Shown here in pieces: positions 1 through 16,997 of a DNA stretch of 17,198 nt. Source of the DNA: Elusimicrobiota bacterium (GTDB taxonomy: Bacteria; Elusimicrobiota; Elusimicrobia; Elusimicrobiales; UBA9959); assembly GCA_027340875.1 (NCBI GenBank), contig DAIENX010000107.1, forward strand, positions 1 through 17,198. Direction: 5' to 3'. The position numbers were made by a program, and so were the translations under genes. The notes under the pieces were generated by a model. It did no database searches. It saw nothing but the letters and a program-made list of their open reading frames with translations, and was not told where the DNA came from. Every line of letters starts with the position of its first letter. Positions within the stretch are counted from its first letter, which is position 1.

Positions 1-1029
1 GTCGCCGAAGAGTATCTCCGTCTCCTCCGGGGTGAAGCCGATGCCGGAGTTGCCTACCGCCGCCATGATGCGGCCCCAGTTGGCGTCCTCGCCGTTGATG
101 GCGGTCTTCACCAGGTTGGAGCTGGCTATCGCGCGGGCGGCCGCTACGGCGTCATCCTGGCTGGCGGCGCCCACCACCTGCACCTCCACGAACTTGGTGG
201 CGCCCTCGCCGTCCATGACTATCATCTTGGAGAGCCGCACCAGCAGGTGCTCCAGGGCCGCGGTGAACTCGGCGTAGCCCGGGTCCGTCTCCGAGGCCAG
301 CGGCGCGTTGCCGGCCAGCCCGTTGGCCAGCACCACCACCATGTCGTTAGTGCTGGTGTCGCCGTCAACGGTTATGCGGTTGAACGAGCGGTCCACGACG
401 TCCTTCACCGTCCTCTGCAGCAGCTCGGGGGTTATCGCGGCGTCGGTGGAGATGAAGGCCAGCATCGTGGCCATGTTCGGGGCTATCATGCCCGAGCCCT
501 TGGCCATGCCGCCCAGCTTGACCTCGGCGCCGTCGATCCGCACCGTCACGGCCAGCTCCTTCACGAAAGTGTCGGTGGTCATGATGGCCTCGGCGGCCGC
601 GCGGCCGCCCTCGGCGGAGAGCTGAGGTACCGCCTCTGCCAGGCCGGCTATGATCTTTTCCATCGGCAGGTACTGGCCGATGACGCCGGTGGAGGAGACC
701 AGCACCTCTTCCTTTTTAAGGCCGGTGACCAGCGCGGTCTGCGCTATCATCGTGCGGGCGTCCTCCAGGCCCCTGGCGCCGGTACAGGCGTTGGCGTTGC
801 CGCTGTTGACCGAAACGGCGCGTATCCAGCGGGAGGCGGCCAGCTGTTCCTTGCACGCCGTGACCGGCGCGCCAGGCACCGCGTTCTGGGTGAACACCGC
901 CCCGCAGGCCGCCGGTCTCTCGGAGACCAGCAGCGCAAGATCCTTCTTGGCCCGCTTTATACCGCAATGCAGCCCGGCGGCCTTGTAGCCATTCGCCGCC
1001 GTAACTCCGCCCGCGATTTCCTGTATCAT
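1..1029 (-). CDS. argJ: Bifunctional ornithine acetyltransferase/N-acetylglutamate synthase ArgJ (3' end beyond window)
   Basis: Not in the ORF track because it has no stop in the window. Manual translation from ATG at 1029 gives MIQEIAGGVTAANGYKAAGLHCGIK...KDLALL...VNSGNANACTG...SSTGVIG...AIMTTDT...GGMAKGSGMIAPNMATMLAF...DGDTSTND...DGEGATK...DANWGRI, which are ArgJ hallmark motifs including the autocleavage site A/TML. AGGAG RBS upstream. Confidence 0.97.
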   Translation of the reverse strand, partial: MIQEIAGGVTAANGYKAAGLHCGIKRAKKDLALLVSERPAACGAVFTQNAVPGAPVTACKEQLAASRWIRAVSVNSGNANACTGARGLEDARTMIAQTALVTGLKKEEVLVSSTGVIGQYLPMEKIIAGLAEAVPQLSAEGGRAAAEAIMTTDTFVKELAVTVRIDGAEVKLGGMAKGSGMIAPNMATMLAFISTDAAITPELLQRTVKDVVDRSFNRITVDGDTSTNDMVVVLANGLAGNAPLASETDPGYAEFTAALEHLLVRLSKMIVMDGEGATKFVEVQVVGAASQDDAVAAARAIASSNLVKTAINGEDANWGRIMAAVGNSGIGFTPEETEILFGD

Positions 1030-1056
1030 TTACTTTTTCTCTCCTTTATATACCGC

Positions 1057-2070
1057 TCAATTCAGTCCGGCTTTCTCCGGCAGGCCGAACATGATGTTCA
1101 TGTTCTGTATGGCCTGGCCGGCCGCGCCCTTGCCCAGGTTGTCTATGGCCGCCATGACCGTCAGGTGGCCGGTGCGCGCGTCCACGGAAAGGCCGATGTC
1201 GCAGTAGTTGCTTCGCGCCACCGCCTGTATCTGCGGCATGCCCTTCTTGACCCGCACGAAGGCCGCGTCCCTGTAGAAGTCCTCGTACACGGCCAGCGCG
1301 GCCGCCGCGTCGGTCTTCGCGGCCAGCGCGGCGTGTATCGTGGAATGTATGCCGCGGGTCAGCGGCACCAGGTGGGGGATGAAAGATACCGTGGGCTCGA
1401 GGCCGGTGGCCGCGCGCAAAGCGCTCTCTATCTCCGGGACGTGCTGATGGCTGCCGGGCTTGTAGGCGCGCACGTTCTCGTTCAGCTCGGTGAAGTTCAT
1501 GTCCGCCTTGGCGGTGCGGCCCGCGCCCGAGATCCCGGACACCGCGCTGACCGCTATGGACCCGGGTTTCGCCAGGCCTTTGGCCAGGGCCGGCAGCAGG
1601 CCCAGTATCACGCTGGTGGCGTAGCAGCCGGGGTTGGCGACCAGGCGGGCCTTCTTAATATCTTCCTTATTGACCTCGGGAAGGCCGTACACGGCCTGCG
1701 TCAGCAGGTGCTTCGCCGTGTGCTCCTTGCCGTAGTAGCGCAGGTACTCCTCCGTGCGCTGGAGCCTGAAGTCGCCGCCCAGGTCTATCACCCTTTCGGC
1801 CGTATCCAGCAGGGAAGGCACCACGTCCATGCCCTGGCCGGAGGGCAGCGCCACGAAGGCCACGTCGGCCTTCTTCATTCTGCCCGGCACGTACTCCTCG
1901 AACTTCAGGTCCACGCGGCCCGCGAGCGCGGGATAGAGCTCGTCCACGCGCTGCCCGGCGGAAGTGTTGGCGGTGACAGCATCTATGGAAACGTCGGCGC
2001 GCGACGAGAGCAGCCGCATCAGCTCCGCGCCGGAATAACCGGAAGCCCCGACGATAATTGCCTTGATCAT
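1057..2070 (-). CDS. argC: N-acetyl-gamma-glutamyl-phosphate reductase ArgC (337 aa)
   Basis: C-terminal part of ORF 1057..2982. True start is likely MIKAIIVGASGYSG (ATG at 2070, AGGAG upstream). Motifs GASGYSG, ANPGCY (catalytic Cys), SGISGAGR and DNLGKGAAGQAIQNMN. Confidence 0.96.
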   Translation of the reverse strand: MIKAIIVGASGYSGAELMRLLSSRADVSIDAVTANTSAGQRVDELYPALAGRVDLKFEEYVPGRMKKADVAFVALPSGQGMDVVPSLLDTAERVIDLGGDFRLQRTEEYLRYYGKEHTAKHLLTQAVYGLPEVNKEDIKKARLVANPGCYATSVILGLLPALAKGLAKPGSIAVSAVSGISGAGRTAKADMNFTELNENVRAYKPGSHQHVPEIESALRAATGLEPTVSFIPHLVPLTRGIHSTIHAALAAKTDAAAALAVYEDFYRDAAFVRVKKGMPQIQAVARSNYCDIGLSVDARTGHLTVMAAIDNLGKGAAGQAIQNMNIMFGLPEKAGLN

Positions 2071-2090
2071 CCTTTCTTTCTCCTTGACCG

Positions 2091-2128
2091 CTTGCATAAA
2101 TATACAACATTTTGTATGATTATGCAAT
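2091..2128. promoter_or_regulatory. Tandem ARG boxes (ArgR/AhrC operator) in the argC/argD divergent promoter region
   Basis: Two 18-bp imperfect palindromes, CTTGCATAAATATACAAC (2091-2108) and TTTGTATGATTATGCAAT (2111-2128), 2 bp apart. Both match TGCAT-N4-ATGCA and lie in an AT-rich gap between divergent arg genes. Confidence 0.85.
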
Positions 2129-2166
2129 AGCCTCCGTGGAGAAAGCGGAAGGCGGGGAGAATAAAA

Positions 2167-3375
2167 ATGAGCCAGCAGCAGAGAGAGCAGGCGGTATTCC
2201 TGAAGACCTACAAGCGCCTCCCGCTCGAGATAGAGAAGGGAAAAGGCGCCCGCCTGACCACCCCGACAGGGGAGACATATCTGGACATGATCTCCGGCGT
2301 GGCCGTTAACGCGCTTGGCCACGGGCACCCGGCCGTCCTTTCGGCCATAGCGGAGCAGGCGGCGCGCTACGTGCATGTCTCCAACTATTTCCTGCAGGAG
2401 CCTCAGATAGCGCTGGCCGAGCTGCTGGTGAAATATTCCGGCTGCGAGAAGGTATTCTTCTGCAACAGCGGCACCGAAGCCGTAGAGGGCGCGCTGAAGA
2501 TAGCCCGCCGCTGGGGTTCCACCCGCGGCAAGACGGAGCTGGTCTCGATGAGCAACGCCTTCCACGGCCGCACGATGGGCGCGCTGTCGCTGATGGACCG
2601 CCCCGGCTACCGCGACGGCTTCGGTCCGTTCCTCGGCGGCTGCGGCACCGCGGCCTTCAACGACCCGGCGTCGCTGCGCGCCGCGGTCGGGCCTTCCACC
2701 GCCGCCGTACTGCTGGAGTTCGTGCAGGGGGAGGGCGGCGTCAGGCCGGTTTCCGCTGAGTTCGCGGCCGAGCTGCAGAAGCTGCGCGCCGAGCACGGCT
2801 TCCTTATAATAGCCGACGAGATACAGTCCGGCGCCGGCCGGACCGGGAAGTTCTTCTCTTTCGAGCATTACGGCGTGAAACCCGACCTGGTCCTGATGGC
2901 CAAGCCTATCGGCGGCGGCCTGCCGCTGGGGGCGATACTGGCGTCGGGCGAGGCGACCTCCGTGCTGGCCCCAGGCATGCACGGCACCACCTTCGGCGGC
3001 AACCCCGTGGCCTGCGCCGCAGGCATAGCCGTTATTAAGGAAGTAATGGAGAAGGGCGTGCTCGCGAACGTGAACGCCATGGGCGTCCTGCTGAAGACTA
3101 AGCTCGAGGCCATACGCGCCGAGTTCCCGGCCCTCGTGTCGGAAGTCCGCGGCCTCGGCCTGCTGGCCGGGCTGGAGCTGGCCTCACCCGGAGACCCGCT
3201 TATAGTGGCCCTGCGCGAGAAGAAGCGCGTGCTGCTCAACTGCACCGACGGCAAGGTCATCCGCTTCCTGCCCCCGCTCAACGTGAAGGCGGAGGAGCTG
3301 GAGGAGGCCTGCGCGGCGGTGCGGGAGCTGCTGGCCGCCGGAGTTGTCGCCGGAAAGGACGCAGTAAAGGCGTAA
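2167..3375 (+). CDS. argD: Acetylornithine aminotransferase ArgD (class III PLP aminotransferase)
   Basis: YLDMISGVAVNALGHGHP, FFCNSGTEAVEGALKIAR, FHGRTMGALS, IADEIQSGAGRTG, LMAKPIGGG (PLP Lys), HGTTFGGNP; arg cluster context. Confidence 0.95.
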   Translation: MSQQQREQAVFLKTYKRLPLEIEKGKGARLTTPTGETYLDMISGVAVNALGHGHPAVLSAIAEQAARYVHVSNYFLQEPQIALAELLVKYSGCEKVFFCNSGTEAVEGALKIARRWGSTRGKTELVSMSNAFHGRTMGALSLMDRPGYRDGFGPFLGGCGTAAFNDPASLRAAVGPSTAAVLLEFVQGEGGVRPVSAEFAAELQKLRAEHGFLIIADEIQSGAGRTGKFFSFEHYGVKPDLVLMAKPIGGGLPLGAILASGEATSVLAPGMHGTTFGGNPVACAAGIAVIKEVMEKGVLANVNAMGVLLKTKLEAIRAEFPALVSEVRGLGLLAGLELASPGDPLIVALREKKRVLLNCTDGKVIRFLPPLNVKAEELEEACAAVRELLAAGVVAGKDAVKA

Positions 3376-3412
3376 TTGGTCTTTGTTGTGCGCGGGTGGC
3401 GGCGGTTAGTTT

Positions 3413-3549
3413 GCGCAGATACGACCGACTTGCCGAGACGGGCCGTCGCGGACTGAAGCCGCTTGCGTAGCGCGGCGAAGGAGTGACGAGCGGCGAGCAC
3501 GGTGTGCGAGACCGCGTGCCCGGTGAGGTAAGTCGGGCGGAAGCTGCGC
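3413..3549. repeat. Structured intergenic element (nested inverted repeats), related to the element at 12093-12220
   Basis: GCGCAG (3413-3418) pairs with CTGCGC (3544-3549), and CCGACTTGCC (3425-3434) pairs with GGTAAGTCGG (3527-3536). Internal motifs are GCTTGCGTAGCGC (3461-3473) and GCACGGTGTGCG (3497-3508). Confidence 0.6.
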
Positions 3550-3577
3550 TGAATAGTTTGGCTTTAAGGAGAACGAC

Positions 3578-4818
<1,241 letters not shown>

Positions 4819-4819
<1 letters not shown>

Positions 4820-5994
4820 TGAAGCTCTGGGCGAAGGGGTACGACCTCGACAAGGATATAGAGTCCTTCACCGTAGGGGACGACTACCTGCTCGACCGCA
4901 GGCTGGTGAAGTACGACTGCGCCGCGTCGCTCGCGCACGCGCGGGCCCTGAGAAAGGCCGGACTGCTGACGTCGGGCGAGCTGAAAGAGATCATCGCCGG
5001 CCTCGAAGAGATACTGGCCCTGGACGCCGCAGGCGAGTTCAGGATAAGGCCGGAGGACGAGGACTGCCACACGGCCATAGAGAGCCGGCTTACGGCCAGG
5101 TACGGCGCGGCCGGCAGGAAGGTGCATACCGGCCGTTCCCGCAACGACCAGGTGCTGACCGCGCTGCGGCTCTACGAACGGGACGCGCTGGCGGAGATGA
5201 AAGCGGCGCTGGCCGCCTTCGCCGGGGCCTGCAAGAAGCTGGCGGCTAAGCAGGGCGGCACGGCCCTGCCTGGCTACACGCATACGCGCCGCGCGATGCC
5301 GACCACGGCCGGCGCCTGGCTGGGCTGCTTCGCCGCGGCCGCGGCGGACGATTCCGGACACGCGGACTTTTTGATGAAGCTGCTGGACCAGTCCCCGCTG
5401 GGCTCGGCCGCCGGCTTCGGCGTGCCTGTGCTCGGGATAGACAAGGCCTACAGCGCGCGGCTGATGGGCTTCTCGAAGGCCATAGAGAACCCCATCTACG
5501 CCCAGTTCACCCGCAGCAAGTTCGAGCCGGCGGTGATGCATCTGTGTTCGCAGGTGATGCTGACGCTGAACAAGCTGGCCACGGACCTCATCTACTTCAG
5601 CGCGCCGGAGTTCGGTTTCGTGGCGCTGCCGAAGGAGTTCTGTACCGGCAGCTCGATAATGCCGCAAAAAAAGAACCCCGACGTGCTGGAACTGGTCAGG
5701 GGGAAGTACCACGTCGTGCTGGGCGAGGAGTTCAAGGCGCTGTCGCTGGCCGGCAACCTGCCGTCCGGCTACAACCGCGACGCGCAGCTGGGCAAAGGGC
5801 CGCTGTTCGCCAGCCTGGACGCCGTGCTGGCCTCGCTGCGGATCATGGCGAAGGTGGTGGCCGGGCTGAGGTTCGTCCCGGAGCGCTGCGTTCTGGCTCC
5901 GGAGCTGTTCGCCACGGAGGAGGCCTACCGGCTGGTGAAGTCCGGCGTGCCGTTCCGGGAGGCCTACCGCAGGGTGGCCGCCAAGTTCCGCTGA
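4819..5994 (+). CDS. argH: Argininosuccinate lyase ArgH (short 391-aa form)
   Basis: EDCHTAIE, HTGRSRNDQV, PGYTH, SPLGSAAG, GSSIMPQKKNPD fumarase-family signature, GVPFREAY. Translationally coupled to argG by a TGATG overlap. Confidence 0.95.
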
Positions 5995-6007: not shown

Positions 6008-6047
6008 AAAAAAAGAACCGCCGCCCGAAAGGCGGCGGTCCTTTTTT
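6008..6047. terminator. Bidirectional rho-independent terminator between argH and the ACT gene
   Basis: AAAAAAAG-AACCGCCGCC-CGAAA-GGCGGCGGTC-CTTTTTT: GC stem flanked by an A tract and a T tract, between convergent genes. Confidence 0.9.
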
Positions 6048-6059
6048 CAGGCAGTGAGG

Positions 6060-6470
6060 CTACTTCAGTCCCAGCTCGCCCTTCAGCACTTCTATGGCCT
6101 TCTCGGGGTCGGAGGCGTTCAGCAGCAGCCTGCCGTCGGCGCCGCCTATCGAAGTGCCGTACACGGTGGTGATGTTGATCTTGTGCTCGCTCAGCGCTTT
6201 CGCCAGCTGGAGGAGCTGGCCGGGTTTGTCCGGCAGCTCGAGGGAGATCATCGGGGTCTCTATCGTGGTGAAGCCGGCTCCGGTCAGGATATGGCTGACC
6301 TTGCGGTCCGCGTCCACCGCCACGCGCACTACGCCGGAGTCGTCGCGGATCTCCGAGGCGATGCCGATGATGTTCACGCCCTCGTTGGCGAACAGCTCCA
6401 CGAACTTGGAGAGGGCGCCCGGCACGTTCGGCAGGAACACGGTATATTGTCTGACAAGTTTCACTGGCAT
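6060..6470 (-). CDS. Tandem ACT-domain (amino-acid-binding) protein
   Basis: 136 aa with two ACT-like repeats: QYTVFLPNVPGALSKFVELFANEGVNIIGI and SLELPDKPGQLLQLAKALSEHKINITTVY. Confidence 0.85.
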   Translation of the reverse strand: MPVKLVRQYTVFLPNVPGALSKFVELFANEGVNIIGIASEIRDDSGVVRVAVDADRKVSHILTGAGFTTIETPMISLELPDKPGQLLQLAKALSEHKINITTVYGTSIGGADGRLLLNASDPEKAIEVLKGELGLK

Positions 6471-6570: not shown

Positions 6571-7107
6571 ATGAAGCTCGTTCCGGAGGGGAGATCCAGG
6601 GTGCTGTCCTACGTCTCGCTGGCCGTCGCGGCGGCCTGCGCCGTCATGGCCTCGCGGGCGGCGTACGACCTGCTGACGCTGGCGGAGGTGCTCTCCACTC
6701 CCGCGTTCTACCTGAGCCTGGTCCATTCCACGCTTCCTATCGACCTGCCGCCGCTGGCCGCGCTGATGGTGCGGCACACGCTCCCCTTCTTCGTCTTCAT
6801 GCTGCTCTTCTGGTCTTCCGGCCTCGGTCTTTCCATCGGCGTGCTGGCCAGGAGGGAATGGGCCCGCCGCGGCGCCGTCTGGATGCTCTACCTGAACGCC
6901 GCCGCGGCCCTGCTGGTGCTGGGCTACCCGTGGCTGGCCGTGCCGCGCCCGCTGATGTACGGGGATATACCGCTGGCGCCGGACTTCAACGGCGCGGTGA
7001 GGACCGCGGCTTTCTTTTTAAGGCTGACCTCCATGCTGCACGGGGGGCTGTGCCTCTGGGGCGGCCTGGCGCTGGACCGAGGCTCCGTCAGGAGCGAATT
7101 CGACTGA
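6571..7107 (+). CDS. Hypothetical integral membrane protein (about 4 hydrophobic segments, 178 aa)
   Basis: Strongly hydrophobic ORF with GC-rich third codon positions. Ends 10 bp before the next gene, suggesting it is the first gene of an operon. Confidence 0.75.
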   Translation: MKLVPEGRSRVLSYVSLAVAAACAVMASRAAYDLLTLAEVLSTPAFYLSLVHSTLPIDLPPLAALMVRHTLPFFVFMLLFWSSGLGLSIGVLARREWARRGAVWMLYLNAAAALLVLGYPWLAVPRPLMYGDIPLAPDFNGAVRTAAFFLRLTSMLHGGLCLWGGLALDRGSVRSEFD

Positions 7108-7117
7108 TGAGGGGAAC

Positions 7118-8785
7118 ATGATAAGAACCAGATATCTTCTGCTGGCGGCGCTTCTGGCCCTGCCGCGCGCCGCGCTGGCCGGCTTCGGGATGAAATGGGC
7201 GGAGACCGAGGTGATACTGGACCGGGACGGCAAGGCGCAGGTCGCTTACGCGGTGCGCTGGGCCGGCAGCGGCCAGCTGCACGGCTTCTACTTCGAGGGC
7301 TTCCAGGAGACTCCGGTCTTCGACATGGGACGCGCCTACGCGCTGGACTCCTCCGGCAACAAGTACCAGCTCGACATAAAGAAGCTGTCGGACCGGAAGT
7401 ACGACATAGTGCTGGCCGGCGGCCAGGCCGTCACCTCGGGGGAGATCACCTACTTCTTCCGCTACGCGGCGGACCTGCAGGCTTCCGGTAACCTGACCCA
7501 GACCACGGCGGGGGAGAAGAAGCTCGCGGTCTTCAACTGGTCGCCCGTGCAGTGGGACGACCCGATGGAGCACGGGGCTCTTACCGTCCGTTTCCCGGTC
7601 GCGCTCGCTTCGCCGCAGGTGGACGAGAAGACGCTCTCCGGCCTCGGCTTCATGACGGAGAAATTCGTCAACGAGCGATATTCCATAGACTACCCGACGG
7701 TAAAGAACGCGGAAGGCAGGGACATCTTCAGCGTGCGCTTCTTCCGCAAGAACCTGGAGCGGCGCTACCATTTCCAGGTGCAGGTCTATCTGGACGCATC
7801 GCATTTCGGCCTGAACACGATGACGTACGGCAGCCTTACGAAGGGGCTGCCGGAGAAGATGGAATACAGGCCGGCCGCCGAAAAGTACTATCTGAACCGC
7901 TATTTCCCGGGCAGCATGCTCGCCTCGCTGCCTATGAACCGCCGGGGGACCCTGCTGGTCCTGATAGCCCTGGCCGTAGTGTTCGTGCTGCTGCCCTTCG
8001 TGGTGATGACTGTGAAGCACAACGCGATGCTGACCGCGCAGGCCGGCATCTCCGCGGTGAACTGGGACGGTACCGAGTGGGAGCCGCCTAAGGCGCAGGT
8101 GAGCTCTTTCCGCGTGCCCGGCAAGATAGCGAAGGACCTCAGCCCGCTGGAGGCCGGCGTGGTGATGGGCCTTCCGCTGGCCGAGCTGCTCGGGCTGATG
8201 GTGGGGAACATGGAGAGGAAGGGGCTGCTGAAGATAAAGAGCGGCACCCCGCTGGTGGTGGAGAGGGTACAGGGAGCCTCGGTCAGCATGGACCCCTACG
8301 AGAACTCCCTGCTGGCGGCGATACGGCCGGACGGCAGCATAGACGAGGTTTCCGCCACCGCGGCCGTGCGCGCGCTGGGCGACGGCGTGCAGCAGAAGGC
8401 CTGGGACTGCGACATGGAGGCCACCCGGGACTATTATCGAAAGCAGGTGGACCGTTATTCCGGCATGCGCACGGACGACGATACCGGCTTCTACTGGGGC
8501 GGCTACCGCCGGCATTACTACAGCCGGGATTACAACAACCCGCTCTATAATAACTCGCAGCAGGCGGCTGGCGGGCTGAAGACGGCCCTGCCGGCCGACT
8601 TCGCCGGAGGCTTCGACGCTTTCCGCGGCTCGGCCATGTGCTACGAAGGCGCCTTCTCCGGCTCGGCCTGCCACGACGCCTGCCACTCGGCCTGCCACGA
8701 TGCCTGCCACAGCGCGTGTCATTCCGCCTGCCACTCGGCGTGCCACGGGGCCTGCCATTCGGCCTGCGTCAGCAGCGGCCACTAG
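7118..8785 (+). CDS. Signal-peptide, single-TM protein (DUF2207-like) with a C-terminal (ACHx)8 Cys/His repeat; candidate radical SAM substrate
   Basis: N-terminal signal peptide MIRTRYLLLAALLALPRAALA, then a beta-rich extracytoplasmic region (FNWSPVQWDDPMEHGALTVRFP) and a TM helix TLLVLIALAVVFVLLPFVVMTV. The post-TM segment DLSPLEAGVVMG...MERKGLLKIK resembles DUF2207. Tail: SACHDACHSACHDACHSACHSACHSACHGACHSACVSSGH. GAGGGG RBS. Confidence 0.85.
   Translation: MIRTRYLLLAALLALPRAALAGFGMKWAETEVILDRDGKAQVAYAVRWAGSGQLHGFYFEGFQETPVFDMGRAYALDSSGNKYQLDIKKLSDRKYDIVLAGGQAVTSGEITYFFRYAADLQASGNLTQTTAGEKKLAVFNWSPVQWDDPMEHGALTVRFPVALASPQVDEKTLSGLGFMTEKFVNERYSIDYPTVKNAEGRDIFSVRFFRKNLERRYHFQVQVYLDASHFGLNTMTYGSLTKGLPEKMEYRPAAEKYYLNRYFPGSMLASLPMNRRGTLLVLIALAVVFVLLPFVVMTVKHNAMLTAQAGISAVNWDGTEWEPPKAQVSSFRVPGKIAKDLSPLEAGVVMGLPLAELLGLMVGNMERKGLLKIKSGTPLVVERVQGASVSMDPYENSLLAAIRPDGSIDEVSATAAVRALGDGVQQKAWDCDMEATRDYYRKQVDRYSGMRTDDDTGFYWGGYRRHYYSRDYNNPLYNNSQQAAGGLKTALPADFAGGFDAFRGSAMCYEGAFSGSACHDACHSACHDACHSACHSACHSACHGACHSACVSSGH
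8666..8773 (+). repeat. Coding 12-bp tandem repeat (9 units) encoding ACHD-ACHS-ACHD-ACHS-ACHS-ACHS-ACHG-ACHS-ACVS
   Basis: Units of GC(C/G) TG(C/T) CA(C/T) NNN read directly from 8666 to 8761, then GCC TGC GTC AGC. Units differ at synonymous positions. Confidence 0.95.
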
Positions 8786-8789
8786 AGCT

Positions 8790-10136
8790 ATGGACTGGAA
8801 GAAGAGGGTGGACTGGATAGACGGCTACGCCGCGCGCATCAAGCCCTACGTGCGCGTGCGCGAGGCCGACCGTTTGCTGATCAAGATCCCCAACCAGGCC
8901 CATAAGCTGAACGCGCAGGGCGCGAAGCTGCTGAAGTTCGTCCTGGACGGCGGCAGCGCCGTCTCCGTGGTGGAGGCCTATCCGCCGGAGAAGCGCGAGG
9001 CGGTATCGCTGGACGTCTACTATTTCTTCCGCGACCTGATGGCGCTGCTGAAGGGCTGCGCCGGAGAGGAGGGCGGCAGGAAGGCGCTTGAGGTGAAGCC
9101 TTTCGCGCTCGGGCACAACGCGCTGCCGGTCCTGAGCGAGATAGCCGTGACCTACCGGTGCAACCTCGCCTGCCGCTTCTGCTATGCCGGCTGCGGCTGC
9201 AAGAAGGACGAGGAGCACCCGGACCTGCCCGCTTCTTCGCTGAAAGAAATACTTGGCATGATAGCCGGCGAGGCGGAGGTCCCCTCGGTGAGCTTCACCG
9301 GCGGAGAGCCGCTGCTGCGGCGGGAGCTGCCTGAGCTGGTGGCCCACGCCAAGTCGCTCGGCTTGTGGGCCAACCTGATAACCAACGGCACGCTGGCCGA
9401 CGGCCGCACCGTGAAGCGCCTTAAAGCGGCCGGGCTGGACTCGGCCCAGGTCAGCGTGGAGGCCGGTTCGGCGAAGCTGCACGACGCCATCGCGGCGCAT
9501 ACAGGCGCCTTCGAGCGCACCGTCCGCGGCATAGAGAATTTCATGAAGGCCGGGATACGGGTGCACACCAACACCACGGTCTCGGCTCTGAACAAGGACG
9601 GCCTGGAGGGCATACTGGACCTGGTGAAGTCCCTCGGCCTGGACAAGTTCTCGATGAACCTGCTGATGCCGGTGGGCTCGGCGGGCAATAATCTCTCCGA
9701 CACCTTCGTCTCCTATACGGAGGCCGGTCCGCTGGTAGAGAGGGTGAAGGAACTGGCGGAGAAGCGCGGACTCGAGTTCATGTGGTATTCGCCCACGCCG
9801 TTGTGCATCTTCAATCCTATCGCCCGGGGGCTCGGCAACAAGGGCTGCGCCGCCTGCGACGGCCTGCTCAGCGTGGCGCCGAACGGCGACGTGCTGCCCT
9901 GCTCGAGCTATCCGAAGCCGCTGGGCAACATGCTAAAGGAAAAAGGCAATTTTAAAAAGCTCTGGAACGGGCCCGAGTTCGCCTGGTTCAGGGAGAAAGG
10001 CTTCGCGCACGAGAAATGCAGGACCTGCCGGCACCTGGCCGCCTGCAACGGCGGCTGCCCGCTGTACTGGGAGAAGGCCGGCTACGGGGAGCTGCTGCCG
10101 GCCGCCGAGGCCTGCGCCGCAAGGGAGACCATATGA
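8790..10136 (+). CDS. Radical SAM/SPASM-domain enzyme with N-terminal PqqD/RRE-like domain (448 aa)
   Basis: ATG at 8790, 4 bp after the upstream stop. Contains CNLACRFC (CxxxCxxC, 9159-9182), SFTGGEPLLR and LITNG. SPASM cysteines: CAAC...NGDVLPC...CRTCRHLAACNGGCP. The N-terminal HKLNAQGAKLLKFVLDG...DVYYFFRDL resembles PqqD-type winged-helix domains. Confidence 0.92.
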   Translation: MDWKKRVDWIDGYAARIKPYVRVREADRLLIKIPNQAHKLNAQGAKLLKFVLDGGSAVSVVEAYPPEKREAVSLDVYYFFRDLMALLKGCAGEEGGRKALEVKPFALGHNALPVLSEIAVTYRCNLACRFCYAGCGCKKDEEHPDLPASSLKEILGMIAGEAEVPSVSFTGGEPLLRRELPELVAHAKSLGLWANLITNGTLADGRTVKRLKAAGLDSAQVSVEAGSAKLHDAIAAHTGAFERTVRGIENFMKAGIRVHTNTTVSALNKDGLEGILDLVKSLGLDKFSMNLLMPVGSAGNNLSDTFVSYTEAGPLVERVKELAEKRGLEFMWYSPTPLCIFNPIARGLGNKGCAACDGLLSVAPNGDVLPCSSYPKPLGNMLKEKGNFKKLWNGPEFAWFREKGFAHEKCRTCRHLAACNGGCPLYWEKAGYGELLPAAEACAARETI

Positions 10137-11164
10137 GCATATTGCCGCCGCCGCAGAAGGACGGGGAGATAAAATTCTTCATCGCCGGCGGGCTGCCGTA
10201 CAGGGCCCGCATGGCGCTGGTGTTGGGCCTGCTGGCCGTAGGCCTCGGGGTGCAGGTAACGCTGGGGTTCTGGCCGGGTTTCATCGTGCTGATCTTCGCC
10301 CAGCTGCTCGGGATGAACTCGGGCTACGACGCCGCGCCCAGGATCTCCGGAGAGGAAAGCTGGGCTCGCGTGACCCCAGATGAGTATATCAAGGTCAGGA
10401 AGCGCGCCGACGAGCTCAGGCGCTGGGACGAGGATTTCTTCGACGCCACCAGCACCAGCGGCCAGGTAGGCCTCGGCGTCACGGCGCTGGCCTGCGCTAT
10501 AGCGTACGGTATAGCCGCCGCGACCTTCTCGTTCCCCGACGGGGCCTGGCTGCCGTTCGGCCTGGACGCGGCCGTGCTGCTGCTGCCGCTCTGGTTCATA
10601 GGAACGCGCGACTACCTGAAGAAGGACAAGCTGATCATAAAGATAAACGCGCTGGAGAACGTGATGGCCGCGCTGAAGCCCGGCAGCGACGTACAGGTGC
10701 AGCCCATGCTGTCGCTGGCGTCCACCAAGTCCGGCGGCAAGGAGCCGGAGGACGCGCGGCTGATGGTCAAGCTGGTCGGCGCGCCGGAGGGTTTCTACGG
10801 CGTGCAGGTGCAGCTTTCGATAAACAGCGTGCAGGGCAAGGACTTCCCGTACCTGTACTGCGTGGTGCTGGCCAAGCGGGGCTTCGGCCTGCTGAAGGAT
10901 TACAGGGACCTGCTGCCGGGGAGGACGGAGAAAAGCCTGATGGCCAGTCTCTCCGGCTTCCTGCTGGGCGGCCTTAGCGGCCCCGGCGGCGGCGACGTGG
11001 ACCTGGTCTACGAGCCGTCCAGCACCGGGGAAGTGGAGCTGATAGTGGTGCGCAGGCGCACCACGAAGCAGAGCGGCTATTATACGCCGCCCTCCGCGGC
11101 CATGCAGGTGGTGAACGGGGCGCTGCAGCTGGCCAAGGGGCTGGCCGCCCGGGGTCCGGCCTGA
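10133..11164 (+). CDS. Hypothetical membrane protein (about 4 TM helices plus soluble C-terminal domain, 343 aa)
   Basis: True start is likely MSILPPPQK at 10133, with an ATGA overlap with the rSAM stop. Two hydrophobic hairpins followed by a soluble domain. Confidence 0.8.
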   Translation: MSILPPPQKDGEIKFFIAGGLPYRARMALVLGLLAVGLGVQVTLGFWPGFIVLIFAQLLGMNSGYDAAPRISGEESWARVTPDEYIKVRKRADELRRWDEDFFDATSTSGQVGLGVTALACAIAYGIAAATFSFPDGAWLPFGLDAAVLLLPLWFIGTRDYLKKDKLIIKINALENVMAALKPGSDVQVQPMLSLASTKSGGKEPEDARLMVKLVGAPEGFYGVQVQLSINSVQGKDFPYLYCVVLAKRGFGLLKDYRDLLPGRTEKSLMASLSGFLLGGLSGPGGGDVDLVYEPSSTGEVELIVVRRRTTKQSGYYTPPSAAMQVVNGALQLAKGLAARGPA

Positions 11165-11255: not shown

Positions 11256-12089
11256 ATGTGGAATTACACCGAAAAGGTATACGAGCATTTCAAGAACCCC
11301 CGCAACGTGGGAGAGGTGGAGAACCCGGACGCCGTGGGCGAGGTGGGCAGCATAGTCTGCGGCGACGCGTTGAAGCTGACGCTTAAGATAGACAAGGCCA
11401 CCGACACCATCACCGACGCCAAGTTCAAGACCTTCGGCTGCGCGAGCGCGATCGCCTCCTCCTCGGCGCTGACCGAGATGGTGAAGGGCATGAAGCTCGA
11501 CGACGCGGCGAAGATAACCAACCAGCAGATAGCGGATTTCCTCGGCGGCCTGCCCGGCGAGAAGATGCATTGCTCCGTGATGGGCATGGAGGCGCTTGAG
11601 GCCGCCATAAAGAACTACCGCGGCGGCAAGACCGAGAAGGTCATCATCGGGGTGGGCGAGCGCGTGGTCTGCAAGTGCTTCAACGTGACGGAGAGCCATA
11701 TCCTCAAGGCCATAAAGCTCAACAACCTGAAGACCGTGGACGAGGTGACCAATTTCACCAAGGCCGGCGGCGGCTGCGGCCAGTGCAAGGGCGAGATCGA
11801 GAAGATCCTCAAGGATTACTGGGCCGAGGCGGAACACAAGCGCTTCGCGAACATGACCGTGGTAGAGAAGATCAAGATGATAGAGAAGGTGCTGGCCGAG
11901 GAAGTGAACCCCAAGCTGAAGGCCGACGGCGGCTGGATAGAGCTGGTGGACATAGATGGCCAGAAAGTGAAGCTGCGCTTCCTGGGCATGTGCCATGGCT
12001 GCCCTTCCTCCGGCGCCACGCTGAAGAACGTGGTGGAGAAGGAGCTGAAGGAGCGCATCGACCCGGCGCTGGAGATAGTAGCGGAGTAG
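11256..12089 (+). CDS. nifU: Three-domain Fe-S scaffold NifU
   Basis: IscU-like N-terminal domain (YTEKVYEHFKNPRNVG, CGDAL, FKTFGCASAIASSS, KMHCS), a central BFD-like [2Fe-2S] domain (VCKCF...GGGCGQC), and a C-terminal Nfu domain (DGGWIEL...GMCHGCPSS). Confidence 0.95.
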   Translation: MWNYTEKVYEHFKNPRNVGEVENPDAVGEVGSIVCGDALKLTLKIDKATDTITDAKFKTFGCASAIASSSALTEMVKGMKLDDAAKITNQQIADFLGGLPGEKMHCSVMGMEALEAAIKNYRGGKTEKVIIGVGERVVCKCFNVTESHILKAIKLNNLKTVDEVTNFTKAGGGCGQCKGEIEKILKDYWAEAEHKRFANMTVVEKIKMIEKVLAEEVNPKLKADGGWIELVDIDGQKVKLRFLGMCHGCPSSGATLKNVVEKELKERIDPALEIVAE

Positions 12090-12092
12090 GGT

Positions 12093-12220
12093 CGGCGTCA
12101 CGGGGACCGGAACGCAAAAACAGCGTCGCGCACACCGTGCGCGCGCTTCCGGCTCTCGGCCTCGGCGCTTCGCAAGCCTCGGCCTCCGAGGCGGTTTTGC
12201 TAACCCGGTCCCCGCGCCGC
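12093..12220. repeat. Structured intergenic element between nifU and nifS, related (inverted) to 3413-3549
   Basis: GGGACCGG (12103-12110) pairs with CCGGTCCC (12205-12212), and GCAAAA pairs with TTTTGC. Contains CGCACACCGTGC (12129-12140) and GCGCTTCGCAAGC (12165-12177), the reverse complements (one mismatch in the second) of motifs in the argD-argG element. Confidence 0.6.
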
Positions 12221-12267
12221 CTCAGGGAGTTTCAGAAAGCAGGAGCTCCTTATGAAAGAGAGGAGAT

Positions 12268-13473
12268 ATGGAAAAGGTCTATTATTTCGATAATAACGCG
12301 ACGAGCAGGGTGGCTCCGGAAGTGGCAAAGGAGATGGAGCCGTTCTTCAACGAACTCTACGGCAACCCGTCCAGCATGCATTTCTTCGGCGGCGGCAACC
12401 AGAAGTACCTGGACCTCGGCCGCGAGCGCGTGGCCAAGCTCCTCGGCTGCGAGACCTCCGAGATAATATTCACCAGCTGCGGCACCGAGGCCGATTCCAC
12501 CGCCATCTGGTCCGCCGTGCGCTCCTTCCCCGAGAAGAAGCACATCATCACCACCAGGGTGGAGCATCCCGCGGTCCTCAACGTCTGCAAGCACCTGGAA
12601 TCCCAGGGCTGGCGCGTCACCTACCTGCCGGTGGACGGCGCCGGCCAGATAAACCTCGAGGACCTCAAGGTCGCGCTAACCCCGGAGACCGCCATAGTCT
12701 CCATCATGTGGGCCAATAACGAGACCGGCGTGGTATACCCGGTGGAAGAGGCCGCCCGCATCACGCACGCCAAGGGCGCCCTGTTCCATACCGACGCCGT
12801 CCAGGCCGCCGGCAAGATACCGATAAACCTCAAAGACACTAAGATAGACATGCTCTCCATCTCCGGCCACAAGCTGCACGCGCCCAAGGGCATAGGCGTG
12901 CTGTACGTGCGCAAGGGCACGCGCTTCATGCCGTTCATGATGGGCGGCCACCAGGAGCACGGCCGCCGCGCCGGAACCGAGAACGTGCCCTATATCGCCG
13001 GCCTGGGCAAGGCCGCGGAACTGGCTTTAGCCCACATCGAGAAAGAGAACACCTACGTGAAGGGCCTGCGCGACAGGCTCGAGGCCGGCCTGCTGAAGAT
13101 CCCCAACTCCCGCGTCAACGCCGGCGGCGCCGACCGCCTGCCCAACACCGCCAACATAAGCTTTGAGTACATCGAGGGCGAGTCCATACTGTTGATGCTC
13201 AGCGAAAAGGGCATCTGCGCCAGCTCCGGCTCGGCCTGCACCTCCGGCTCTCTCGAGCCCTCCCACGTGCTGATGTCCATGGCCGTGCCGCAGACCTACG
13301 CCCACGGCTCCGTGCGCTTCTCCCTGAGCGTCTACAACACCGAGGAAGAGGTGGACTACATTATCCGCGAGCTGCCGCCCATCATAGAGCGCCTGCGCGC
13401 CATCTCGCCCTTCGCCGACGGCAAGCCCCTCTTCGGCATGGACGCCTGCGAAGCCCACGACCATAAGCACTGA
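12268..13473 (+). CDS. nifS: Cysteine desulfurase NifS
   Basis: YFDNNATS, YGNPSSMH, FTSCGTE, VEHPAV, MWANNETG, HTDAVQA, SGHKLHAPKG (PLP Lys), SSGSACTSGSLEPSHVL (catalytic Cys); AGGAG RBS; follows nifU. Confidence 0.96.
   Translation: MEKVYYFDNNATSRVAPEVAKEMEPFFNELYGNPSSMHFFGGGNQKYLDLGRERVAKLLGCETSEIIFTSCGTEADSTAIWSAVRSFPEKKHIITTRVEHPAVLNVCKHLESQGWRVTYLPVDGAGQINLEDLKVALTPETAIVSIMWANNETGVVYPVEEAARITHAKGALFHTDAVQAAGKIPINLKDTKIDMLSISGHKLHAPKGIGVLYVRKGTRFMPFMMGGHQEHGRRAGTENVPYIAGLGKAAELALAHIEKENTYVKGLRDRLEAGLLKIPNSRVNAGGADRLPNTANISFEYIEGESILLMLSEKGICASSGSACTSGSLEPSHVLMSMAVPQTYAHGSVRFSLSVYNTEEEVDYIIRELPPIIERLRAISPFADGKPLFGMDACEAHDHKH

Positions 13474-14237: not shown

Positions 14238-16997
<2,760 letters not shown>

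Follow-up and report, generated by a model that had tools for sequence, protein, structure and literature searches.

A widespread radical SAM/SPASM gene cassette built around a membrane protein with a His-x-Ala-Cys repeat tail

The stretch of DNA analysed here (the window), 17,198 nucleotides of contig DAIENX010000107.1 from an Elusimicrobiota bacterium, contains a gene cassette in which a radical S-adenosylmethionine (SAM) enzyme is paired with a large membrane protein ending in a tail of periodic Cys and His residues. The core of the cassette consists of three genes, encoding the tail protein, a radical SAM/SPASM enzyme of a type associated with the RiPP recognition element (RRE; RiPPs are peptides made by the ribosome and modified after translation) and a predicted four-helix membrane partner. 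The cassette is real and widespread, extending over many uncultured lineages of bacteria and into the Asgard archaea, is undescribed in the sources searched and is a member of no family tested; no description of it was found in the mostly open-access literature covered. We consider it probable that the enzyme modifies the predicted cytoplasmic tail while the latter remains part of the intact membrane protein.

7118-8785, forward strand: tail-protein gene (core), encoding a 555-aa DUF2207-like single-pass membrane protein with the repeat tail, the putative substrate
8790-10136, forward strand: enzyme gene (core), encoding the 448-aa RRE-radical SAM-SPASM enzyme, with its ATG at 8790
10133-11164, forward strand: partner gene, encoding a 343-aa membrane partner of subtype A

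An original prediction, made from the letters of the window alone, had described four co-oriented genes with gaps of 10 bp and 4 bp followed by a 4-bp overlap, a radical SAM/SPASM gene directly after a 555-aa protein ending in (ACHx)8-ACVS-SGH, and no short precursor peptide in the operon. The open reading frame (ORF) coordinates bear out this spacing and the common direction of all four ORFs, and the repeat end and the gene that follows it are as described. No short precursor appears in the ORF list of the window, which has a 60-aa floor, and the intergenic gaps are too small to hold one; across the cassette loci, no conserved small ORF was found at ORF floors of 60-90 aa. Homologues of the enzyme were further expected to neighbour DUF2207-like proteins with Cys-periodic tails, and they do so consistently. 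All 17 genome loci with the 555-aa protein carry the enzyme gene and the 343-aa gene directly downstream. Among the Elusimicrobiota, tail protein and enzyme occur in the same 10 of 301 genomes and are adjacent in each; in the phylum of genome G301 they occur in the same 7 of 401 genomes, again side by side, and the next-best enzymes there match at E 1e-55 or worse, against 1e-194. Neither full-length gene was found alone in the 301 and 401 genomes of these two phyla, two weak ectodomain-only matches being present in Elusimicrobiota genomes without the enzyme.

The same coupling is seen in metagenome loci, which were picked by the tail motif alone (at least 120 rows, with flanks for 80). A terminal-tail filter kept 86 of 120 rows, and the 34 dropped for want of a terminal ACVS-type tail are copies with a frameshift or a cut, simple repeats and three proteins of the GSRGWR type. 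Among the loci listed, the repeat terminates a protein of 500-1060 aa in 47 of 47 readable cases, a tail-free profile matches all 47 bodies with at least 250 aa, and the enzyme lies downstream in 38 of the 43 loci with at least 1.5 kb of downstream sequence; the other five are one false positive (L068, still counted), one cut enzyme and three loci with no enzyme in the downstream sequence available. The bodies drop to 22-25% identity while the tail stays near-invariant, and trees built from body and enzyme are in agreement (r 0.91 over 28 pairs; permutations, 0 of 999). Among the source labels of the enzyme, or of its clusters at 90%, are Elusimicrobiota, Omnitrophota, Spirochaetota, Planctomycetota and Firestonebacteria, and further Caldisericia, Anaerolineales, Polyangiaceae and Helarchaeota; of 7,999 candidates that were scored, 2,447 clusters reach E 1e-100 or better. 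The enzyme of locus L028 clusters with Helarchaeota proteins, and L023, archaeal-looking by eye, has a tail protein with no enzyme in 2.5 kb downstream.

What is conserved in the tail? In the 555-aa protein it reads ACHD ACHS ACHD ACHS ACHS ACHS ACHG ACHS ACVS SGH. The pattern (CHxA)2+C is found once over the six frames of the 2.8-Mb genome, so that the repeat is not a product of chance. At the DNA level seven of the eight ACHx 12-mers are different, both TCN and AGY codons are used for Ser, and of 104 tails having at least four ACHS units not one has identical DNA units. The unlike DNA of the units and the mixed Ser codons rule out a recent slippage artefact, and the repeat is, judging from synonymous sites that differ between units, kept at the protein level. 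The residue three positions after His is Cys in 572/573 units of subtype A and 283/284 of subtype B, the two subtypes being defined below, and Ala occupies His+2 in 572/573 and 275/284, respectively. The Cys preceding His is present in 560/573 units of subtype A and in only 239/284 of subtype B, where 43 of 284 His are preceded by Val; the residue at Cys+4 is again Cys at 560 of 572 positions in subtype A. The pattern used to read the register imposes three units per tail, and a counter-check on 25 profile-found tails agrees (Cys at His+3 in 175/180, at His-1 in 164/180). At position x, 844 of 855 units have Ser, Asp, Gly or Asn, natural insertions sit between Cys and the next His and almost never within His-x-Ala-Cys, the residues after the last Cys are fixed at 4-6, and the tail is free of Lys and Arg. 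The periodic Cys/His tail of the original prediction therefore stands, and its A-C-H-x register gives way: on the aligned tails, the conserved unit reads better as His-x-Ala-Cys than as Cys-His or A-C-H-x. This register fits an NxxC-like thioether to an upstream residue, a HaaB-like His-Ala ring or a His-x-x-Cys metal pair.

In the homologue P0229 the tail is extended by CDSSCDSCHSSC-type repeats. Locus L066 encodes, at 3980-4411 on the reverse strand, a 144-aa protein with a signal-like N-terminus, CHxA repeats and a GSRGWR end, and L101 and L119 do likewise; the L066 protein lies among three radical SAM genes of a DynA/anSME-like group that reach no family cut-off. The occurrence of this unrelated repeat protein beside other radical SAM genes lends independent support to a modified tail.

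The predicted anatomy of the tail protein is as follows.

7118-7180, forward strand: predicted signal peptide, about aa 1-21 (hydropathy, sequence)
7181-7801, forward strand: predicted extracytoplasmic beta-sandwich, aa 22-228 (structure model, predicted local distance difference test (pLDDT) about 95)
7952-8008, forward strand: predicted transmembrane helix, aa 279-297 (Kyte-Doolittle 3.26; model)
8135-8572, forward strand: predicted cytosolic DUF2207_C / GOLPH3-Vps74-like domain, aa 340-485 (model, alignment), with KxWDCDxEAT conserved
8666-8782, forward strand: repeat tail, aa 517-555, made up of eight His-x-Ala-Cys units and a terminal VSSGH

The structure model has a mean pLDDT of 85 and one continuous helix over aa 275-313. 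A second transmembrane segment at aa 344-362 was considered and rejected, the model folding it as two short helices within the soluble domain. By hydropathy the N-terminus is signal-like and a single transmembrane segment stands out as strong; with basic residues commoner after that segment, the tail is likely cytoplasmic. Hydropathy, charge bias and model thus all favour the originally proposed topology of a signal peptide, a single transmembrane segment and a cytoplasmic tail. The ectodomain resembles chains from the oligosaccharyltransferase complexes of human and yeast (VIA-align; 6s7o_E, Z 15.6, root-mean-square deviation 2.8, 177 aligned; 6c26_1, Z 15.4), which we take to be ribophorin I and Ost1, and also the N-terminal domain of M1 aminopeptidases (3qnf_A, Z 13.8). 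The cytosolic domain resembles GOLPH3/Vps74 only moderately (3kn1_A, Z 6.2; 2zih_A, Z 5.9), and the profile of the tail protein has no significant match among the sequences of solved structures. The C-terminal part is linked to DUF2207_C clusters in Atlas (score 0.90). The 555-aa protein itself matches DUF2207 below cut-off (E 0.0012, 19.5 against 24.4); two homologues exceed the cut-off of DUF2207 (PF09972 N-domain, PF20990 C-domain), and 27 of 51 match at E 0.01. TIGR04222 membrane proteins share a related cytosolic domain, with 14 of 51 homologues matching and a score of 14.5 for the window's protein against a cut-off of 43.

Among DUF2207 proteins, SMU.243 of S. mutans has the same N- and C-terminal domain families, and its loss impairs acid and peroxide tolerance (PMC10457818). 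Ordinary DUF2207 proteins are without the tail and the enzyme of the cassette, and LemA, a common neighbour of DUF2207 proteins (PMC12631010), was not seen near it. Full-length homologues without a tail also exist (the P0210 cluster, with 56 members and Treponemataceae labels, P0243 and P0248); these have lost the WxPPK and KxWDCDxEAT motifs as well and would offer a natural negative control. The ectodomain of P0146 (843 aa) is apparently duplicated. In a three-member cluster, ectodomain and partner homologue form a single fusion protein (P0226; probability 98.3, E 1.2e-14), which indicates that ectodomain protein and partner are functionally linked; P0176, an ectodomain joined to a partner C-domain, is one short-contig sequence and a possible assembly chimera on which we do not rely.

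The original prediction left it open whether the tail protein is a giant precursor or a post-translationally modified transmembrane protein. In the former case the enzyme would cross-link the tail and a housekeeping protease would free a small RiPP, the rest of the protein being an oversized, membrane-anchored leader. A repeated C-terminal core next to an RRE enzyme is indeed the usual RiPP layout, and 23 of 51 homologues show a weak, repeat-borne match to TIGR04117 (best E 1.7e-4). Both ectodomain and cytosolic domain are, however, conserved, well-folded modules, and the former also occurs fused to the partner homologue, as in P0226. Among 87 neighbouring ORFs from 29 loci, with flanks of up to 4-7 kb, we found no conserved protease, exporter, heme or defence gene; the protease-like neighbours are one C39-like, one U32 and one S9-like, each seen once, and the remaining neighbours are miscellaneous and mostly housekeeping. 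Because no protease or exporter is conserved nearby, a giant precursor is a weaker explanation than a modified membrane protein, and we regard it as quite unlikely.

The partner genes divide the cassettes into two subtypes. In subtype A, that of the window (35 of 64 clustered loci), the tail ends in ACVS-(G/S)-G-x-H and the 343-aa partner is present. In subtype B (L018, L021, L024, L037, L041, L051, L054, L058, L094), the tail ends in ACVSSF or similar and the repeat has Val or Val-Cys insertions; downstream of the enzyme, a coiled-coil protein of 390 aa (9 loci) and a membrane protein of 165 aa (6 loci) take the place of the 343-aa partner. The coiled-coil protein has a conserved NPxLDxxEExLKA stretch, belongs to no family and gives, as a profile, no significant match among the sequences of solved structures; the 165-aa protein belongs to no family and has a zinc-ribbon-like end that scores below cut-off. 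The 343-aa partner matches nothing in Pfam or NCBIfam. Its structure model (pLDDT 89) has four helices of transmembrane length, followed by an alpha/beta domain at the C-terminus that resembles YbjN and type III secretion chaperones (1yb3, 4h5b, 8q8o, 2plg, 2xga, 1jyo, 5fr7); several members of these families head the list of matches, at Z 5.5-7.3 and hence under the bar of Z 8 for the structure search. Type III secretion chaperones bind extended polypeptides. The two dedicated membrane partners of the original prediction are reduced to one, the 343-aa partner, which is specific to subtype A; the upstream gene is linked only locally:

6571-7107, forward strand: upstream gene, encoding a 178-aa membrane protein; accessory, not core

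This gene was rejected as a core member: the 12 of 17 genome loci that have it all come from close relatives, and 4 of the 64 clustered loci contain it. In a subclade of loci (L031, L032, L033, L056, L083, L085), the tail gene is instead immediately preceded by another conserved membrane gene, about 210 aa in length and with no Pfam match.

The enzyme has clear Radical_SAM (E 1e-26) and SPASM (E 2e-10) domains, with the following conserved positions.

9159-9182, forward strand: CX3CX2C radical SAM motif (C124, C128, C131), each Cys present in 42/42 orthologues
9804-10058, forward strand: SPASM region with conserved Cys 339, 353, 371, 410, 413, 419 and 423, each in 41-42 of 42

The third predicted domain, the RRE, is reached only by way of relatives: PqqD (PF05402) is matched, at the N-terminus, by 15 of 42 orthologues (best E 1.7e-8) and not by the window's own enzyme, whose RRE we infer from these orthologues. 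The canonical seven-Cys SPASM motif, which includes a terminal Cys (PMC6231123), is not fully matched, the enzyme having six of the motif Cys and the upstream C339, with no conserved Cys after C423. The nearest solved relatives by sequence are SkfB (E 5e-32) and PqqE (E 2e-27), both peptide maturases. No curated NCBIfam cut-off is reached by the enzyme; besides the top scores discussed below, it scores 119 bits against a cut-off of 381 for PqqE, 86 against 265 for MftC and 74 against 268 for HxsC. The models for XyeB, GrrM, FxsB, YhhB and AmcB are not among its top 25 NCBIfam matches, where no HaaB model appeared either.

Several known systems share traits with the cassette, the nearest precedents being HXS, NxxcB, HaaB and QhpD. 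RRE-dependent RiPP maturases share the PqqD/RRE domain; no short leader-core precursor and no conserved dedicated protease or exporter was found near the cassette within the ORF floors and flanks given above. A Cys that recurs every four residues next to a radical SAM gene recalls TIGR04117, whose targets are short peptides; neither TIGR04117 nor TIGR04114 matches the window's protein at E 1, and the matches of homologues are weak and repeat-driven. PapB, CteB, SkfB and QhpD have the same layout of RRE, radical SAM and SPASM/Twitch domains and, in part, repeated Cys motifs, and QhpD modifies a protein subunit (PMC8172795, PMC6231123). PapB, however, needs Cys-X3-Asp, and a PapB-type Cys-X3-Asp/Glu motif is ruled out here by the Cys at Cys+4; the substrates of these four enzymes are soluble and cleaved or exported, unlike the membrane protein of the cassette. 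The cassette enzyme would operate in the manner of an RRE-dependent RiPP maturase on a repeated core, and HXS and QhpD provide precedents for protein substrates. The beta-thioether synthase NxxcB (PMC13361665) acts on the same motif spacing, with Asn where the cassette has His; its substrate is a short streptococcal precursor with an Asn acceptor, under quorum-sensing control, and no membrane substrate is involved. The triceptide synthases HaaB and HtkB (PMC11499958, PMC11002830) close a ring from His1-C2 to Ala3-C-beta on H-A-A, and the cassette tail offers the His-x-Ala of the HaaB type in the subtype A count given above; triceptides differ in their short precursors, and the invariant Cys falls outside their motif.

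A further close precedent is HXS (HxsA-D, PMC13128918), in which a full-size protein with His-containing repeats is matured by radical SAM chemistry and accompanied by a small accessory protein. HXS has two enzymes, His-x-Ser repeats, an N-terminal cleavage, a change of +8 Da and a soluble periplasmic effector, whereas the cassette has one RRE-SPASM enzyme, H-x-A-C repeats, an integral membrane protein and a predicted cytoplasmic tail. As HXS blocks the entry of phage DNA (PMC13128918), the cassette might likewise be an anti-phage system, its matured protein acting as an effector in the membrane to block or sense the entry of phage, an alternative that concerns purpose only and is compatible with the chemistry discussed here. 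Its patchy distribution even inside one genus, that of the window having both genes in only 3 of its 6 genomes, would agree with this. Yet PADLOC returns no match for the tail protein or the partner and only generic viperin models for the enzyme, the neighbours are mainly housekeeping genes, and the position beside an ACT gene and nifUS recurs in relatives; HxsA, moreover, is soluble, periplasmic and basic, and the tail predicted to be cytoplasmic has no Lys or Arg. We consider a defence role improbable.

From the observed gene coupling, tail conservation, H-x-A-C register and enzyme domains, we propose the following scheme for the modification of the tail on the intact membrane protein. The RRE would dock on a conserved cytosolic segment, for which the KxWDCDxEAT region is a candidate, while the partner would hold the flexible tail at the membrane. 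The enzyme would then abstract hydrogen from each unit and close 7-9 small rings, the Cys sulfur of each unit being joined to the His three residues upstream. In the last and weakest step, which we put forward as doubtful, the tail would remain on the protein and serve a transmembrane sensor or an envelope-stress scaffold as a rigid module responsive to redox state or metals. Supposing that the tail is modified, a bond from Cys sulfur to His (C-beta or C-alpha, NxxcB-like) is the most credible single option, though short of a majority; some other chemistry is slightly less so, and a HaaB-like cyclophane from His-C2 to Ala-C-beta is less likely again. With all uncertainties included, the Cys-to-His thioether is our leading but minority guess. 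The full picture, in which a system shared between at least eight bacterial lineages and Asgard archaea builds a ladder of 7-9 Cys-His thioethers on the cytoplasmic tail of a receptor-like protein with a ribophorin-I-like ectodomain and a GOLPH3-like cytosolic domain, the tail being presented by a membrane-anchored chaperone, is more tentative still.

A number of observations weigh against this scheme. The tail is modelled at a pLDDT of about 40, as a helix of low confidence, and the topology derives from hydropathy and model, with a charge bias in only 30 of 49 homologues (K/R count higher after the transmembrane segment than before it in 30, equal in 9, lower in 10). Three loci, L023, L052 and L069, have a tail and no enzyme in 1.9-4.0 kb downstream. 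The agreement of body and enzyme trees shows co-inheritance, not contact, and simple co-inheritance would suffice to produce it. As for the chemistry, similarity of the core domain to SkfB does not fix the reaction, as PMC6231123 warns; thioether-forming CteB has an open cluster site at AuxI (PMC6231123), and the ligand that the present enzyme is missing by alignment is instead at AuxII, which weakens the thioether guess. The absence of cyclophane-synthase models from the top 25 matches likewise weakens the His-Ala guess. The top NCBIfam scores belong to tetrapyrrole enzymes, AhbD with 146 bits and NirJ2 with 141, against a cut-off of 500. H-x-x-C is, finally, also an ordinary metal-ligand spacing.

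These last points would suit an unmodified metal or iron-sulphur array, with His-x-x-Cys pairs along a helix, for which the enzyme loads a cofactor, or beside which it acts on a small molecule as AhbD and NirJ2 do. The fixed spacing of His and Cys, the low-confidence helix, the zinc-ribbon-like end of the subtype B membrane protein and the nifU/nifS-like genes 3' of the cassette, found in the window and at 4 further loci from close relatives, all speak for it. Against this, the PqqD/RRE domain indicates a peptide substrate, nifUS linkage is limited to 4 of 64 loci, and the Ala at His+2 together with the fixed 4-6 residues past the last Cys would be tighter than metal binding usually needs. We judge such an array unlikely. 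A heme-related role would take the CX3CH contained in C-H-x-A-C-H as a heme-attachment motif, with the AhbD-like enzyme making or attaching heme, AhbD being a heme b synthase. The AhbD score is far below its cut-off, the neighbours scanned include no cytochrome c maturation or heme genes, and the tail is predicted to be cytoplasmic. Insertions between Cys and His, as in the subtype B units with Val before His, break the CH end of the motif, and the insertion pattern and register together argue against both the heme and the Cys-X3-Asp motifs; this explanation strikes us as hardly credible. Modification of the tail on the membrane protein thus remains the reading that we prefer.

The window at 1-5994, 6060-6470, 11256-13473 and 14238-16997 holds what we take, by eye, to be arginine biosynthesis, nifU/nifS-like and M16-type zinc peptidase genes, and a domain scan places an ACT-domain gene in the flank of the cassette. 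A bidirectional terminator-like hairpin lies at 6017-6039, and the promoter scan returned one site, equal to chance expectation. Three RNA runs from the same study give no coverage of the cassette, a result that bears neither way on its expression. Between the nifU-like and nifS-like genes, at 12096-12230, lies a dispersed, hairpin-forming repeat of 110-130 bp, which has 43 blastn matches in the window's genome, itself included, and a predicted RNA fold of -78 kcal/mol over 152 nt. It resembles a repetitive extragenic palindrome or a miniature inverted-repeat transposable element. Copies separate the tail gene from the enzyme gene in L010 (7767-7874), L016 (2767-2867) and L012 (8758-8846).

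Consistent with the original view that this architecture is unlike characterised systems, no described system was matched, and the cassette family is large and unnamed. Protein substrates of radical SAM peptide maturases are few in the papers available (QhpC, HxsA), and short precursors are the norm. If our interpretation is correct, the cassette would represent a kind of modification not yet described, made on a membrane protein of full size and not on a short peptide; it would extend radical SAM chemistry to a new class of substrate, an integral membrane protein with 7-9 repeated sites, and perhaps to a His-Cys or His-Ala ladder that would likewise be new. Should the thioether ladder in particular prove true, transmembrane signalling would employ RiPP chemistry to modify a protein permanently, and the cassette would offer a biochemical handle on the DUF2207 proteins.

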